NCBI RefSeq assembly: GCF_018350175.1 | Contig: NC_058368.1 | Location: 102,488,001-102,552,000, forward strand | From: Felis catus | Lineage: Eukaryota | Reading direction: 5' to 3' | DNA length: 64,000 nt | In this document: one piece after another, positions 22,870-63,276 of the stretch | Numbering within the stretch: the first letter of the stretch is position 1 | How the letters are laid out: each line of letters starts with the position of its first letter | Made by a program: the position numbers and the translations under genes | The notes under the pieces: generated by a model | The model's database searches: none | What the model saw: only the letters and a program-made list of their open reading frames with translations | Told to the model about the DNA's origin: nothing

Positions 22870-23082
22870 GCTGAGAAAAGGAGGAAAGGAATGAAGGGAG
22901 GGAGGAAACAAGAGAGGGAGGGAGGGAGGGAGGAAGGAAGGGGAAGGAGGAAGGGAGGGGAAGGAGGAAGGGAGGGGAAGGAGGAAGGAAGGAGAAAGAG
23001 GGAAGGGAGGAGAAAGAGGGAAAGGGGGAGAGAAAGGAAAGGAAGGCAGGAGGAAGGGGAGAAGGAAGGCAAGAAGGAAGGT
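22870..23082. repeat. GA-rich polypurine low-complexity tract (GGAA/GGGA)
   Basis: Read directly. Confidence 0.9.
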
Positions 23083-30390: not shown

Positions 30391-30845
30391 GGGGCGCCTG
30401 GGTGGCTCAGTCGGTTAAGCGTCCGACTTCAGCTCAGGTCATGATCTCGCGGTCCGTGGGTTCGAACCCCGCGTCGGGCTCTGTGCTGACGGCTCAGAGC
30501 CTGGAGCCTGTTTCCGATTCTGTGTCTCCCTCTTCCTCTGACCCTCCCCTGTTCATGCTCTCTCTCTGTCTGTCTCAAAAATAAATAAATGTTGGGGCGC
30601 CTGGGTGGCGCAGTCGGTTAAGCGTCCGACTTCAGCCAGGTCACGATCTCACGGTCCGTGAGTTCGAGCCCCACATCAGGCTCTGGGCTGATGGCTCGGA
30701 GCCTGGAGCCTGTTTCCGATTCTGTGTCTCCCTCTCTCTCTGCCCCTCCCCCGTTCATGCTCTGTCTCTCTCTGTCCCAAAAATAAATAAACGTTGAAAA
30801 ACAAAATTAAAAAAAAAAAATAAATGTTAAAAAAAAAGTTTTAAA
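30391..30845 (+). mobile_element. Can-SINE (outer) with second SINE in its tail
   Basis: Outer TSD taaaggaaaaagaaaata (30373-30390 / 30846-30863). Confidence 0.93.
30594..30817 (+). mobile_element. Can-SINE (inner, young)
   Basis: TSD aaataaatgtt. Confidence 0.94.
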
Positions 30846-33602: not shown

Positions 33603-35275
33603 TATGTCTTCAGTTCAAAGTCACTATAATATTAAGACTCAAGATTTTCTTACCAACTTCTTTATAGGGAAAAGCAAACCAAAGGAGGACAACACTATAC
33701 ACGCGAATCTTAGAACACAGCTTCTTAAATCTTTTACTATTATACTCAAGTCCTAAGGGCAGTTCCATTTTACATGTCTTACATTCTGTATTCACATCTA
33801 CAAGTTTCGCTACCGTATCAACCAACCAAAGGTTAACAAAAGGCCTTTACGCGGGGAGTTTAAGACTGACTGCTTCACTACTTAACACGTAATGTCAACA
33901 CCAAAATATACACACAAGTGACACAAAAAGAACCAATGTTTGGTCTGAAAACATGAAGCTGAATCCTAACAGCGGCTTATTTTTCACGCTGACAAGCGGT
34001 GATGTGACTGTGGTATTGCTTTCCAGCAGAACGTGCCATCAGTCATCCTATCAGATGGGTGTCCCATTACCTCATCAGGAAAGCATAAAACAGGTAGGTC
34101 CAGAGGAAAGGAAAGCCCAGGAAGACGGCCCAGGCAAGCCCTCCCTTGGTCCCTCCCTTATACTCCCCTTCATTCATAAATCTTTACACAGTGCACAGCG
34201 CAAGCACCCGGCCCCCATGTTTGATTTCTGATTTTTTGGTGAGACTGGTAACGCGAGTTTCTGTGATGTGAAAAAAACCAAGCAACTTCGATGTGCATTG
34301 TAACTGTTTCTAATCCACATCCTTAGACCAAGCTCGTTTTTATTAGAAGAAAAGTTTTTCGCCACCGAACACAGAATGATCACATACCCAAGATGGTATG
34401 CGGTCCAGCAAACATACAGAGAGGGTTTGCCAGCTGGGTTGCCTTTCGCCTGTGAAAACAGGTGGGGCTTGGGCACTCTGCAGGCCCATCCTGGAGCTGC
34501 TCGTCACCAAGGGTGACGAACGCCCAGCGGGGCGAGGATACAATGTTGGCCAATACACAGAGCGGCACTGACTAGTAGTTCCTCCAGCCCTCCAACCCTC
34601 TGTTGAGCTCACGGTGAACAGCAAGGCCGGACGGCTTTTTTTCCACTAGCCCAGTGACTAACCGGCTGGGCCCACCAGCGAAACTCACAGACCACAGGCT
34701 GGTTTATTTACCTCCATTTAGCACATCACTGATAGAGGAGAAGGGCGTCCGTGAGCCATCTTCACGTTCCCCGTGGCTGCATAGCTCTTAATCCTCCCTG
34801 GCGTGGCAGGTAACGAAATGAGAAGCGAAAGCGGGCATCCGACTCGCCTTGTGAGTCAAAGCTGAATTTATAAAATCACTGGGAAATACCTCAATAATAA
34901 CATTTCACTTGGTGAAAAAAAAGTTAACGCACCAACCCCGTGCTCCAATACCGAAACCACAAAGCGGGCCGGGATTCGTATTTAATCTCTTCTCCAATCA
35001 AAATTGAAAAAGGAAGTCCCAGTTCCAGGAACAGGTTTGGGCAGTCGATACCGCAGAATAGGAGTAACAACACCGTACGTCGGATCTGTCGTCAATTTAT
35101 ACAGGATCGTTTGCCTTTTAAGGACTTAACTTGAAACCCCTCTGCTTCCCATGTAAACACTATCCTCTTTGTGACTTTGGAGATGCGGGAGAAGCAGGAG
35201 AACTGAAGAGCATCTCTGGTGGTTTGAAGACAATCACTGACTTCCCCAACCGGTCACCTTTAAACATTCATTCTT

Positions 35276-35491
35276 GGGGCGCCTGGGTGGCGCAGTCGGT
35301 TAAGCGTCCGACTTCAGCTCAGGTCACGATCTCGCGGTCCGTGAGTTCGAGCCCCGTGTCGGGCTCTGGGCTGATGGCTCAGAGCCTGGAGCCTGCTTCC
35401 GATTCTGTGTCTCCCTCTCTCTCTGCCCCTCCCCCGTTCATGCTCTGTCTCTCTCTGTCCCAAAAATAAATAAACGTTGAAAAAAAAATTT
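35276..35491 (+). mobile_element. Can-SINE
   Basis: TSD tttaaacattcattctt. Confidence 0.95.
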
Positions 35492-35508
35492 TTTAAACAT
35501 TCATTCTT

Positions 35509-35724
35509 GGGGCGCCTGGGTGGCTCAGTCGGTAAGCGTCCGACTTCAGTTCAGGTCATGATCTCATGGTTCGGGAGTTCAAGCCCCGCGTCGGGCTCTG
35601 GGCCGACAGCTCACAGCCCGGAGCCTGCTTCAGATTCTGTGTCTCCCTCTCTCTCTGCTCCTCCCCCACTCACACTCCGTCTCTCTCTCAAAAATAAATA
35701 AACATCAAAAAAAAAAAAAATTTA
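35509..35724 (+). mobile_element. Can-SINE
   Basis: TSD aaacatt(c/a)attc. Confidence 0.93.
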
Positions 35725-37829: not shown

Positions 37830-39149
37830 GGCAAATGGAACTCTCTTGAAAATGGTTACACATTAAACACATATCTTACCGTCCAGGCTAAGGAGGGGTT
37901 TTTTTTTTGTTTGTTTTGTTCTTTAAATAAGGAGAGTTCTTAAATTCTGTTGGAGGTCTGAAGTTTAGTTTATTCAGCAAGAATAACTCTGTTCACTGCT
38001 CTAGCTCCTTCTTGTCACCACCATCAACATCCACACATTCCAAACCCTGGAAAATGTGAGGGAGTAACAAGGAGGCTGGGGCTGCAGAAGGTTCCACGCC
38101 CGTGTCCAAAAAGCACCTAAAGCTGCCAGCGTGCCCCGTGGGGACGGAAGACAACCTTGGGGACGGATGGGTCACAGCACACAGAAGCAGGTGCACAGAC
38201 TCAGGAGACGGATTTCTCAGAGAACCGAGCACAACTGGGGAGGCTGTACCTGCATCACCACCAAATAAAACTAATAAAAAATAATAATCGTAATAATGAA
38301 ACACCACAAAGCTCTTTGACCGTTTGCCCAGAGTTACTACAGGCTTTTGAATACAATTGGCTTTTTTCTCAGTAACCTCATCTCTTCTTAGAAGCTAAGG
38401 TTCAAGTCAAAACCAAGCAGACTTCCAAGCCACGGGAAAAATAACCCGAGACTTACAGGCATGCCAGAAAGTTTGTGGCTAATTTTACAACATGCACCGC
38501 CCAGTGAGGTCACACTGCAGGAAGTCGGTCCTGTCGCACACAGGAATAAATAAAATAATGACAAGCAATAAGCCAACGGGCGCTAAGTCGTAGCGGAGAA
38601 ATAAACGGGAGGTGGCACCTCGCCCAAATGAGCGAGCGATTCAAGTCCAAGAAAAATCTTTCTTTCAAGTTTATGGAAAGTAACCCTTAGCCTTTCCAAA
38701 TCTTTTTCTGTTCCTGAATCCTCGGTACCCGGACTCATGATTTAACTACAACATGAGATTCGTGTGTCGCTTCCTTCTCTGTACTTTTCTCACCAACGTA
38801 CCAGTCGGACGCCCTTGGCCACCACTTTTCTAAGGAAAACCCGAGAAGACAGAGGGTGTGCAACGCAAAGAGAGGCCAGAGGAGAGGGGCTGCTCCCCAC
38901 ACAGAAGCCCTTGCCCAGAGAGGGTGTTTCAACAGGTAAGCAAGAGAGGGAAATTTTAATTCCAGCTCCTCCTAATCTGGTTACAGGGGGCCAAGGCTTC
39001 CCCCTTAAAAGTACAAAGAGGATGGGGCCCCCCAAAACACCAAGCGTTTCTAAAGCTAAAAGTGAACTTTAACTAGCACTTTCGGTTGAAAGAAAGAGAG
39101 AGAGCCCTTCGTATCTGCTGCTTTCATTCACCTCCTCTGGTTCCTTCTT

Positions 39150-39358
39150 TCAACATTTATTTATTTTTTGGGGACAGAGAGAGACAGAGCATGAACGGGG
39201 GAGGGGCAGAGAGAGAGGGAGACACAGAATCGGAAACAAGGCTCCAGGCTCCGAGCCATCAGCCCAGAGCCCGACGCGGGGCTCGAACTCACGGACCCTG
39301 CGAGATCGCGACCTGGCTGAAGTCGGACGCTTAACCGACTGCGCCACCCAGGCGCCCC
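39150..39358 (-). mobile_element. Can-SINE (young, very short tail)
   Basis: TSD cctctggttccttctt. Confidence 0.95.
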
Positions 39359-40756
39359 TCTGGTTCCTTCTTAAATAATGATTTTTCCTTACTGACGCTG
39401 GCTACGAAATTTTGTACCCGATTACAAAATATACCTTTCAGGACCTCGAAGATTTTTCTACAATTTTTGCTTTTCTTCCTTGAAACGGTGCGCGCTCTTT
39501 TCCGCCTTCTGACAATTACACTCCCACCTGTCACCGGATATTCATTCTTCGTTGTTGTTCTCTGCTTTCGTTCCCTCGTGTGGTCCTATTCTCACTTCTT
39601 TTCTCTCAACTACTTCCTCCCCAGCATTGATCTCCAATTATTCCCCCTTCCCATCCAGGCAGTCTCCTTGGCATATAGTTTTCCTTTCTCCCCTGGGAGT
39701 TTGAGCCCTCAATTTTTTCCCCCTTGAAACAGAGGGCCCTGAACAGTGACTCTGGGTCTCAGACCTTTCCGGTTACCCGCGTCTTTGCCCTTACTCCTTG
39801 TCCCATCTGTCCATGATACTGACACCGATCATCTCCCTTCTCCTTGACCAATCTAGCTTTGAGGCAAAGAAAAGGTTTCCCCTGTGTTCTTCACTCTCCT
39901 TTGTTCACCTGGGGCACATACCTTCCTCACCTTTTCTACTCTCATTCCCCAATGGAGCAACTCGGCTCTCTCCTTGGTAGTTAGTTTTTAATGACCTGTT
40001 GGCCTCTACTATCAATGACACGAGCCATCTGAAACACACCGTACCTGATGATCGTGTGCTACGAGATGTGGCCAACCAGAGTCTGGGTCCACGGTAGGTA
40101 TGGTATATGCCACATTTATGTTTCTAACAGCAATGACAGACTAATCCTAATCCAATTCTCTTGTGACTATTGGATTATACTAGCCAGATGGCCTGCTGAG
40201 CTTAGGGGCAGGGAAGGTGCTATGTCCCCAGTCAAAGAAGAGAAATGACTGGTTCACCTCGGGCCGAAGCCTCTGACCTTGGGTTCGTTAGCCCTGAGCA
40301 CCAAGCAGTCACAGCCATGTCATGGCCATGGCCCTTGGCTAAACGCAAGAACCCAAATCAGCAGGTCAATTTAAACCTCAACAACCCAAGAACAACCACA
40401 TCAAGACCGAGAGATCGGCTGGCACACCGAGAAGAAAGTGAACTTGAGATCAATCCGTCTTCCCCATTCCCATGATCCCCCTCAGGGCAAAGGGTAACCC
40501 TCGCCCCTGCTTCCCTGTCTTTCCGTACTGGCACTTGAAACGCAGGCCACTTTTAGGGCCACCTCATCCATCCTGAACGTCAAAGCCACCGTGAACAGGA
40601 AAGAGAAACACGGTTCTGATTCCAACAAAAAAACCACGGGCAGTATCAAAACCACTTTTCTCTCCTCTCCGATCCCCGCCAAACCAAGTCCCCTTACCGG
40701 TGGACATAACGAAATACATCAGGGGGGGGAAATAGATAAAAGTAAAGTGTATTTAC

Positions 40757-41012
40757 CTTCTTCTGTTTCATGCCACACGATCCCTTCCAAATTCACACTG
40801 GTCCCAGGTTCACAGGGCCCAAGACACTCTGGCTCTGTCACTACTCCAACTTCACATGTATTGACACCCACGGAACGAGTCCGCACCAAAAGCTGTTCAA
40901 CCGGTGCTGCAATATTGGATGAAGATGGGGGAAAGTAGGAGGGCAGAATCTGAGGCGTGAGGCTGCTGGAAATCGGCGGTGGTGGTGCTGGCACTGTAAA
41001 CAGGGGGTCAAC
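40757..41012 (-). CDS. ZNF608: Internal coding exon (256 nt, phase 0 start / phase 1 end) of zinc finger protein 608
   Basis: Translates to [85 protein letters not shown](G). [21 protein letters not shown] is the conserved ZNF608/ZNF609/Brakeless motif, and the N-terminal part plus HETEEG match ZNF608 as recalled. Acceptor is cctgtctgtctttcag|GTT (AG at 41014-41013); donor is GAAG|gtaaat (GT at 40756-40755). Confidence 0.95.
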
Positions 41013-42301
41013 CTGAAAGACAGACAGGCTTACTGCAGGGTGCTGCATTCTCCGAGCTCCTTACAATGCAATCTGTTTATATCACTTCTAGAACACATCA
41101 CCATTCCAAATTCCATTTGCAAGCAGAACAGGCTTCAGGGGGGTTTCGTGGGGCCACCACGTTAAGGAGAAGACAAAACGAGCGTTTGAGGTTTTTCACG
41201 CCCGCCAGGGCCAACCCTGGGGATCCTGCTTCCGGAATAGACAGGCAGGACTCCCAACGTCCTAAATTCACCGATGGAGAACCGTCAGCCTCAGTCGACA
41301 TGCGTGAACTCTGCTCTGCAAAATTAGGACTCTTGCCCCCTTGTGATGAAATCTCACGTTCAAAACCGCAGTATTTTCCAAAGGAGAAGATCCAATAAAC
41401 GCCACAGAGGCATCACTGGGCACTTCAGCATGGGAGATGGGCTAAAATCGTCTTCAAAGTACTTTACAAACCGTAATGAATTAAATCACTACGAAAATAC
41501 ATTAAGTGACTCTGCTGAATATGTAAAATACATCAACTTGATTATACACACTCAAACACATAAACTGGATATTATTAGCATGTATTAAGCATCGACTCCT
41601 AATTAAGTGTTCTACTGCAAAGTTTAGCAGAATTCACCTACGTGGGGAAATAAAGGCCTGTGCCCAACGTCAGCAGAACCGGGAGTTTCTCCAATGCCAC
41701 ATGTCCTTTAGTGGTTCGACTTGGAAAGGTCCCTGATGAGTCTGACCAAGTCCCGGGATTCCACCCTCAAAATCCCAGGAAACAGACATGACAGCCATTA
41801 TAAGAGCACACGGTGCAATGCCATGTCCTTTGCACCCCTATCCTCGCGAGCAGGAAAGCAGATCTTGAACCATACAACATTCAGGAGCCTGGCCGTGACG
41901 AAAACCAAAGGCTATGCATGTACTAAGTAGGCACACCTCCAACCACCCCACTCTCTCGTCAGACCCATTTCGATTACAGTTATGACCGGTACAGAACAGT
42001 GTTAGCCGTGCTGACGGGTGGTCAGATGTAGAAGAGCCCAATGCAAAGCCCATCTGCACCACGACTCCAGATCGCTTGCCTGGGTCTTCAACTTACACAC
42101 AGGTATCACCTACCGATAAGGGAGGCCATCTTGCGTGCTTTATCAGCTGAGCTAACAAATCCTATGTGTGCAAAGGACACACAGAAACTATTTCTGGTAA
42201 AAGGCCATCCTGGTCTGTAGCTCCTATATGCCCAATTAACCTTTGTAAGAAACCAACGCTTGGCTATTAGACGTGCTATTACATAGTCTTTGTTGTTTAA
42301 A

Positions 42302-43322: not shown

Positions 43323-44230
43323 TCCTCCAGCCGCCTACTGATAACAAATCCTATTACAATAGAATTCCTGGGCTAAATCCCTATTTCAATATAACTCCAA
43401 CTACGAATATATCTGCACACAGATACACACACACATGAACCTACTCCTTGGGATATGTAAGTGACTCCAAAGATCAAATTTCTAAAGAATCTAGAAGACT
43501 TGAGGCGAGAGGCGACGGTATCCTGGGCCTACGAGCAACTTAACGGTGTTTATTTCCATTCACGCAATCCAAGGGCAATGAACAAAGCTTGGTGGATAGC
43601 ATTTATCGAGCAGACCTTGGAACCCCGTCCCCAAGGCTTACAGTGAGAAGCTAAGGTTCGGAGAGTCTGACTATAAACATGAACTTAATCATAAACAGTC
43701 CCCCAATACAAGACCACACCCCAGTGGTCTAATGGCTTCCATTAGAAGCCCCTCTTCCCCAGAGGTCACCAACCACAGAGGAGGGTAAGGAATCACAGCC
43801 ACTCCCAGAGGTGTTTTACACTGGGAGGTATGCTACTCTTTCAAACATTACAAATTTTCACAAACGCAAAAACTTAGGGACAAGTATGAATGTCTACTAT
43901 CTCTTAAAATAATAACGAGATAACGTACGGGGCTCGGCCAGCGATTCCTCGCGGCATCAACTGACAGGGCTTAGGCCTTGCAGTGACCAGCTGAGTTTGC
44001 ATTTGCAGCCCTCCCCTGAGAGAATCACAGAATGTCTGCCCCTAGAAGACCACGTAGCCAGCCTCCTCATTCTAGAGAGAAACTTGGCCCATATTTGCAC
44101 AAAGGCAATAAGTAAGGTACCTCTGGGGGCAGCCCAAGTGAAAATAAAACAGCATCCTATAAGCAGTAGGAGTTCAAGTACACACCCGAGGAGCCAAGAG
44201 AGAGGCGGAAGGGAAATAATTCAGTGTCTG

Positions 44231-44462
44231 AGGGCGCCTGGGTGGCTCAGTCGGTTAGGCATCCAACTTTGGCTCAGGTCACGATCTCGGGGTTCCTGGG
44301 TTCAAACCCCGCGTCAGGCTCTGTGCTGACAGCTCAGAGCCTGGAGCCTGCTTCGGATTCCCTGTCTCCCTCTCTCTCTCTGCCCCTCCCCGCTTGTGCG
44401 CTCTCTCTCTCTCTCACCGTCTCTCAAAAATAAATAAATATTTTAAAAATAATAATAAAATT
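44231..44462 (+). mobile_element. Can-SINE
   Basis: TSD aaataat(t/a)cagtgt. Confidence 0.93.
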
Positions 44463-44779
44463 AAATAATACAGTGTACCGAGTCGCTAATTCTTTCCGCC
44501 AGCGAATGCCCCCAGTAAGAGATGCCCCCCTACAAAAGGTTTCAGTTCTCTTGTGAATCTTACAGCATCTAAAACAAAGCCACATGCACCATGTGTAAAG
44601 CAGGATCTGGAAGGATTTTCAGTAGTGTTTTTACCTCCTACCAAAGATCAACTCCGCTGCGCCGATTTCCAGGTCACTGATCCATAGACGGAACCGTACC
44701 TTCTTCAACCAATGAGGCTCGTGAAGACGGAGAGAAGCATTGGTCCCTAGGAGAAGCCCCTCCAAGGGGCATACACTTG

Positions 44780-49125: not shown

Positions 49126-49360
49126 GGGGCGCCTGGGTGCCGCAGTCGGTTAAGCGTCCGACTTCGGCTCAGGTCACGATCTCGCGGTCCGTGGGTTCGA
49201 GCCCCGCGTCGGGCTCTGGGCTCATGGCTCAGAGCCTGGAGCCTGTTTCCGATTCTGTGTCTCCCTCTCTCTCTGCCCCTCCCCCGTTCATGCTCTGTCT
49301 CTCTCTGTCTCAAAAATAAATAAACGTTAAAAAAAAAATTAAATAAAAAAAAAAAAAAAA
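49126..49360 (+). mobile_element. Can-SINE (no clear TSD)
   Basis: Near-consensus body and long A tail. Confidence 0.94.
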
Positions 49361-49580
49361 GAAAGTAGGCTGAAATGAGGGAAAAGTCACAGGCCTCTCA
49401 TCCTACTGGACACAGACAGGACTTTAAGGGAAAAAGGAAGGGAGGAATAAAAGGAAAGAAGGGCCTATTTGGAAAAATCACTTTATTCTTATTCTCAACC
49501 AAGAGTGGTTCTTTTCTTCACCTTATATTATGGAATCTCACTTGCAACTGCTACAAAGAGTGTCTTCAATTGAAATTTGA

Positions 49581-49803
49581 GGGGCACCTGGGTGGCCCAG
49601 TCGGTTAAGCGTACGACTTCAGCCAGGTCACGATCTCGCGGTCCGTGAGTTCGAGCCCCGCGTCCGGCTCTGGGCTGATGGCTCAGAGCCTGGAGCCTGT
49701 TTCCGATTCTGTGTCTCCCTCTCTCTCTGTCCCTCCCCCATTCATGCTTTGTCTCTCTCTGTCCCAAAAATAAATAAACGTTGAAAAAAAAAATTTAAAA
49801 AAA
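49581..49803 (+). mobile_element. Can-SINE (young)
   Basis: TSD gaaatttga. Confidence 0.94.
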
Positions 49804-60502: not shown

Positions 60503-60710
60503 GAAAAGAAAAAAGAAAAGAAAAGAAGAGAAAAGACGAGAAAAGACAAGAGAAAAGACAAGAGAAAAGACAAGAGAAAAGACAAGAGAAAAGACAAGAG
60601 AAAAGACAAGAGAAAAGACAAGAGAAAAGACGAGAAAAGAGAAGAGAAAAGACGAGAAAAGAGAAGAGAAGAGACGAGAAAAGAGAAGAGAAGAGAAGAG
60701 AAGAGAAAAA
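60503..60710. repeat. Purine-rich compound repeat including (GACAAGAGAAAA)7
   Basis: 12-mer x7 at 60545-60628 flanked by GAAAA/GAGAA units. Confidence 0.92.
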
Positions 60711-62935: not shown

Positions 62936-63132
62936 TCTTACAACGGTCTCATTTCCAAGTTCACTAATGATTACATTAACAAATGACACACAAGAGAGGC
63001 TCTGTGGGTCTGCACACAACTAGAGACACCTGGAAAACATTCGCTCTGAGGAAAGGACTGGTCTCTTTTTAGGGAGGAAGGGAGCCTCTGAGGAAGCTAC
63101 CACGCGGTCCGCTCTCTGAGAAAACACGCAAA

Positions 63133-63276
63133 CAAAAACACTTCATGATCTTGCCTGAGGAATGGAGGCAGAAATGAAGCTGAGAGTAGGTTCCCAAACC
63201 CTGACAAAAACACTTCATGATCTTGCCTGAGGAATGGAGGCAGAAATGAAGCCGAGAGTAGGTTCCCAAACCCTGA
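63133..63276. repeat. 72-bp tandem duplication (2 copies, 1 mismatch)
   Basis: 63133-63204 vs 63205-63276; T63181/C63253. Confidence 0.95.

Follow-up and report, generated by a model that had tools for sequence, protein, structure and literature searches.

In Felis catus, a 256-nt internal coding exon of ZNF608 is, judged by its gene and length, the counterpart of a single-exon circular RNA (circRNA) of human and mouse. The 91-amino-acid open reading frame (ORF) that circularization of this exon would open is most likely a by-product of exon phase and conserved residues, either untranslated or translated as noise (probability about 0.8). The circle has already been published, as has the prediction of an ORF on it. 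The window referred to below is the whole 64,000-nt stretch of DNA that was analysed, and positions are counted from its first letter. Several points speak against the by-product reading, namely the recurrence of the circle in human and mouse, its cytoplasmic location in human, the ORF and IRES predicted for the human circle, a high circle-to-linear ratio, an AAGAAG hexamer and the scarcity of the immediate stop when codon order is shuffled, and they are weighed below.

The exon occupies 40757..41012 on the minus strand, runs from phase 0 to phase 1 (3n+1 in length), and is delimited by its splice signals, by protein matches and by the length of the human and mouse circles. Inspection of the sequence places an acceptor AG with an upstream pyrimidine tract at 41013..41014 and a donor GT at 40755..40756, both also on the minus strand. 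Frame 0 comprises 85 codons without a stop, and the protein it encodes is 98% identical to the best match among the 120 of 202 matches listed. These codons correspond to residues 296–380 of a full-length protein of 1,503 residues (P0248), which has Lys directly before the block and Gly directly after it (HETEE-G). By these protein matches the host gene is ZNF608, as the first-pass annotation of this DNA had proposed. In a tblastn search of the 64-kb window with three full-length ZNF609 proteins, the only match was 41012–40757, which leaves some 23 kb on its upstream side and about 40.7 kb on its downstream side free of further exons of the ZNF608/609 family. The window outside the exon thus appears to be intron, and Rfam gave 0 matches in positions 1–40700 and 41100–64000.

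The human circle, circZNF608 (hsa_circ_0001523, hg38 chr5:124701013-124701269), consists of one exon of 256 nt; its junction was verified by Sanger sequencing after RNase R treatment, and the RNA is mainly cytoplasmic in human cells (PMC8905624). An ORF and an IRES on this circle are predicted by circPrimer 2.0, both as predictions only (PMC8905624). The mouse circle, circZfp608 (mm9_circ_004897, mm9 chr18:55106206-55106462), is a single minus-strand block spanning 256 nt, and its abundance is low, with 10 reads in six cortex libraries compared to 400 for circZfp609 (PMC5153657 supplement). A figure legend elsewhere describes circZNF608 as high relative to its linear RNA, with the exon unstated in that legend (PMC7056929). 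The first-pass annotation had mentioned a single-exon ZNF608 circle in human catalogues, and this is borne out by the human publication and extended by the mouse entry. The human circle belongs to another species and is matched to the present exon by gene, length and protein conservation, and the mouse circle by gene and length, in neither case by DNA alignment; the accessible part of the human report does not give the sequence of the ORF. By conservation, back-splicing of the exon in Felis catus is likely, and the human ORF and IRES prediction suggests that the circle ORF persists across mammals. A second, longer mouse Zfp608 circle (mm9 chr18:55049467-55106462) has the same upstream acceptor and 11 cortex reads (PMC5153657 supplement). 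It would hold the whole of the conserved β block described below, if the following exon is included.

The geometry of the circle ORF follows from the length of the exon. Two ATGs are present. The one at 40857 is followed by a stop after one codon, while the one at 40769..40771 (minus strand) lies out of frame over native His and Glu codons and has a G at −3 that is provided by a Trp codon. In the circularized exon, the ATG at 40771 would be followed through 5 codons, the 85 native codons, one Gly codon and a TGA, giving a product of 91 residues with a computed mass of 9,682 Da and a pI of 4.6. The ORF measures 276 nt including the stop, which exceeds the length of the circle, so that it spans the junction twice and leaves zero untranslated space on the 256 nt. 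In an exon of 3n+1 nucleotides the reading advances by one frame on every round, and therefore any ATG past the last frame +1 stop is bound to traverse the entire native frame, itself free of stops, after which it runs to the first frame +2 stop. The ORF is in this sense arithmetic. The exon length, the ATG at 40771, the 91 residues, the 276 nt and the two junction crossings had been given in the first-pass annotation and were re-derived without change. Its description of a stop made by the junction holds in one respect only: the TGA is indeed read right after the junction, but it already lies wholly inside the exon, at exon nucleotides 3–5 (41008..41010, minus strand) over native Val and Asp codons, and the junction only puts it in frame. 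A stop that comes into frame just past the junction is a feature of circZNF609 as well. The host gene's own start codon, which circZNF609 uses, is absent from an exon that begins at residue 296 of P0248, and stops in both other frames leave no stop-free ORF for rolling-circle translation. The last Gly of the circle product arises from the native Gly. The C-terminal HETEEG, once put forward as a marker peptide for the circle, is consequently native, since P0248 also has Gly after HETEE. If this species resembles P0248, about 4 residues would be specific to the circle and 87 of the 91 would be native.

The frequency with which such an ORF arises by chance was estimated by synonymous recoding, in which the protein was kept constant and each of three simple codon models supplied 20,000 new sets of codons. 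The entire native frame was covered by an ATG-initiated ORF in 49.6% of recodings with uniform codon choice, in 60.1% with the exon's own third-base usage and in 40.5% with a GC3 of 0.6. When the immediate stop was also required, these values fell to 12.7%, 17.2% and 8.2%, respectively. Shuffling the order of the codons gave the ORF in 38.2% of cases and the ORF with an immediate stop in 2.0%, which is rarer than under the recoding models. When stretches were picked at random from five family proteins after back-translation (5,000 draws each), an ORF of at least 91 residues was present in 41–42% of cases at 256 nt and in 23% at 257 nt. The circle ORF is thus not above chance, as the exon length and the amino acids yield it about half the time. 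Such ORFs are also common in general. Circle-specific AUG ORFs have been found in 64–96% of circRNAs of three blood cell types, with scant evidence of translation in the part of that report consulted (PMC8906552), and ORFs that overlap the host frame in 67% of human circRNAs (PMC9242994). These results do not support taking the ORF as a sign of a selected ZNF608 micro-protein, because about half of synonymous recodings give the same ORF and conserved residues dictate the context of its start.

Those residues can be followed through the family. His, the commonest residue at the ATG site across the family, is found in 69 of 121 anchored homologues (from 124 new ones). Among the 120 of 202 matches listed, 29 are of the His type, 89 of the Gln type (ZNF609) and 2 of neither, and in the 89 Gln-type entries no ATG is possible at the corresponding site. 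Eleven His-type entries among the same 120 show the start of the exon, where 8 have Val and 3 have Met (P0093, P0094 and P0096). A Met codon ends in G, which makes the stop impossible in these three; they are divergent, probably from fish, and so would have no bearing on mammals. From the conserved Trp-His-Glu, both the ATG site and the G at −3 follow, with only the choice between CAT and CAC left free. Since the Trp codon fixes the −3 G, this base was rejected as independent evidence for a start. It is the codons of residues constrained in the protein that write out the ATG, its context and the stop; the constraint is visible in the residues themselves, and the codons presumably follow them. 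The N-terminus of the circle product is contained in 0 of the 120 matches listed (of 202), a count that is uninformative, as most of these entries seem to have come from gene calling on genomic contigs.

The native part of the product belongs to a well-conserved region. Brakeless, ZNF608 and ZNF609 share a conserved D2 domain (PMC1868043), the beginning of which lies in the exon, and no part of the ZNF608 protein is more conserved than the encoded block. The D2 block itself runs unbroken across the downstream junction. The exon boundary cuts through the invariant block, about 30 invariant residues of which continue in the next exon. A first fold model was unusable (pLDDT 39.7). A model of a paralogue fragment (P0066), built with 39 sequences, reached a pLDDT of 86–88 for residues 61–90, its only confident part, and 64 overall; it predicts strands at 67–72, 77–84 and 87–94, with the exon ending at 75/76. 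On this model, the circle product would carry the first strand of three behind a Pro/Ser-rich stretch. Residues 61–95 of P0066, the block common to ZNF608, ZNF609 and Brakeless, form a predicted three-stranded β meander with several invariant aromatics and no clear solved relative; a fold search with the model gave no meaningful match (best Z 3.4). A Pfam search assigned no family to the exon or to three ZNF609 fragments. The label PF27627 (ZNF609_beta) comes from an Atlas listing, with scores of 0.82 and 0.76 that make it a lead only, and among the 120 of 202 matches listed it falls on P0066 alone, whose sequence runs into the next exon. The exon thus encodes the start of the D2 or ZNF609_beta block, but just a piece of it would be present in the circle product, which, judged by the model, is not the intact partner-binding module that a dominant-negative product calls for.

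Known partner contacts map partly elsewhere. The ZNF609 stretch bound to INTS13/14 in the Integrator structure PDB 8PK5 maps N-terminally, at about residue 27, outside the exon. In the fly, the D2 region together with the zinc finger binds Atrophin weakly (PMC1868043). Binding of NIPBL has been mapped broadly to the N-terminal part of Zfp609, with the most conserved region included (PMC5263256), and the breadth of this mapping leaves room for a short linear motif in the exon, which may act as a partner contact. The segment RTRSVGVNT (40885–40856) is nearly invariant in vertebrate ZNF608/609. It bears what we take to be a resemblance to the binding motifs of LC8 (DYNLL1). A reading of this segment as an LC8-binding motif was dropped, as it found no support in a literature search and the consulted part of PMC5263256 makes no mention of Dynll.

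Signals for initiation on the circle, whether m6A motifs or open structure, are not above background. The circle has 7 DRACH sites compared to 5.5 ± 1.7 in 5,000 recodings (P 0.28), its circular folding has a z of +0.45, and the predicted ensemble has the ATG largely base-paired. One AAGAAG hexamer, of a kind reported to promote translation of circPFAS (PMC9242994), lies inside the ORF, where it is spelled by Glu-Glu-Gly. The same study found that a circle with a stop no longer gave intact GFP once all of its spacer had been taken out, while stop-free circles were still translated (PMC9242994). The circular ORFs described there likewise read the host frame across the junction and end at a stop, but the ORF described here is missing from the 990 junctions with mass spectra (7 of 8 supplementary files). 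ZNF608 as a whole is absent from that list, a weak negative, as ZNF609 and HIPK3 are absent too. Searches for ZNF608 and the junction motifs gave 0 matches, likewise weak negatives, in the supplements of PMC11245404 (1 file), of PMC10943130 (all but file 2; weak, the control ZNF609 being absent too) and of PMC7938571 (2 small files; uninformative, for the same absence of ZNF609). In 11 of the 20 supplementary files of PMC8355340 the search was uninformative, with the control gene absent as well. No publication naming a peptide of a ZNF608 circle was found in the open literature.

The closest precedent is circZNF609, which derives from a paralogous gene, is also a single-exon circle and likewise has a stop that enters the frame just past the junction. 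However, its ORF begins at the start codon of the host gene and leaves part of the circle as untranslated space, whereas the ZNF608 circle would depend on an internal out-of-frame ATG and an ORF longer than itself. As the first-pass annotation had stated, a different exon is involved: circZNF609 is formed from the second exon with the host AUG (PMC5387670), the exon studied here is the next one, and the corresponding exon of ZNF609 has no ATG. The accompanying statement that circZNF609 is translated stands as far as polysome association and a tagged product are concerned (PMC5387670), but it has been disputed by a report, consulted in part, in which no endogenous protein was found and the signal was traced to linear by-products (PMC7544230).

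The flanking introns have a layout that permits back-splicing but is not special. The window's interspersed repeats are presumably carnivore SINEs. On the downstream side, the intronic copy closest to the exon lies about 1.4 kb away (39145..39368); it is inverted relative to its closest counterpart in the upstream intron, at a distance of about 3.2 kb (44214..44470). It matches 44232–44442 in inverted orientation at 80.4% over 214 nt, and 49126–49335 and 49579–49789 at 92.6%. Long flanking introns with inverted repeats, as expected for a circRNA, are thus present, with inverted pairs no commoner than direct ones. Of the matches of at least 60 nt that span the exon, 140 are inverted and 136 are direct. 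Among neighbouring repeats in the window, 13 of 28 pairs have the inverted arrangement (from 29 of 35 repeat intervals, the 6 of unclear orientation excluded). Flanking inverted SINEs were rejected as a special signal on these counts.

The best account of these observations is that a regular internal coding exon of ZNF608, flanked on both sides by very long introns, occasionally has its donor joined by the spliceosome to its own acceptor, forming a 256-nt circle, as seen in human and mouse and as would apply to Felis catus. Slow splicing of the long introns and pairing of inverted SINEs may aid this step, and the circle would then go untranslated or give a noise-level product, an unfolded fragment that is degraded. 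That the exon is not circularized at a meaningful level in Felis catus, so that the ORF exists on paper only, is distinctly unlikely. The unbiased repeat orientation would fit this possibility, as would the counts of QKI, MBNL and RBFOX motifs, which are not raised in the 1 kb flanking the exon, but the two repeats closest to the exon are inverted relative to each other, and the presence of the circle in both human and mouse points to a gene architecture shared among mammals. The abundant SINE families differ between human and mouse. A role for the circle as RNA, through binding of miR-152-5p or diversion of pre-mRNA, is somewhat less improbable, though still unlikely, and it is compatible with a by-product ORF. 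A luciferase reporter with a mutated site supported miR-152-5p binding (PMC8905624), a ZNF608 circle has a high ratio to its linear RNA (PMC7056929), and loss of the 256-nt exon would shift the frame of the remaining ZNF608 message, as follows from its length. Against this, the miRNA result was one positive among 63 predicted interactions and was obtained on a linear reporter, the trends seen by RNA-seq and by qPCR were at odds (PMC8905624), and the circle is scarce in mouse cortex relative to circZfp609 (PMC5153657).

Cap-independent translation of the circle into a stable 91-residue decoy, which would engage partners of ZNF608/609 through a conserved 13-residue stretch or the first β strand, is very improbable. 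In its favour are the ORF itself, the cytoplasmic human circle with its predicted ORF and IRES, and the slowing of ovarian cancer cells that overexpress that circle (PMC8905624), together with the AAGAAG hexamer, the 7 DRACH sites and the high conservation of a block that, with the zinc finger, contacts Atrophin weakly (PMC1868043). However, the ORF is at chance level, the motifs are not enriched, ZNF608 is missing from the 990-junction list (PMC9242994), and overexpression constructs yield linear by-products with the same junction (bioRxiv 10.1101/2020.12.10.418848; PMC7544230). The micro-protein proposed in the first-pass annotation fares poorly for further reasons: the stop is impossible in 3 of 11 ZNF608-type entries, and the product would be a cut domain, with one modelled strand of three and without the Integrator-binding stretch, the PF27627 label being confined to P0066 among the 120 matches listed. 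A bolder form, in which mammalian circZNF608 gives a conserved 9.7-kDa protein from the internal out-of-frame ATG whose strand or motif disrupts how the conserved ZNF608/ZNF609 domain assembles or sequesters a partner, with the His and Val codons under selection, is a long shot.

As it stands, the by-product ORF matters little, as such ORFs are the rule among circRNAs. The locus nonetheless provides a clean endogenous test of the translation and function of a circle ORF: a silent change of the His codon would remove the ATG and leave the ZNF608 protein intact, an option that is closed for most AUG circles. A stable product, were one to be detected, would stand as an uncommon example of circRNA translation free of artefacts, in a pathway linked to Cornelia de Lange syndrome.

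The introns hold further repeats of other kinds. Head-to-tail pairs of SINE-like elements occur at 30391–30796 and 35259–35703, with periods of 202 and 232 and matches of 88–90%. Purine-rich simple repeats on the plus strand, which would be long pyrimidine tracts in the transcript, lie at 22914–23069 and 60506–60709, each adjoining a SINE-like copy. A 72-nt direct tandem duplication with a 98% match, which does not belong to the SINE family, is present at 63132–63276.
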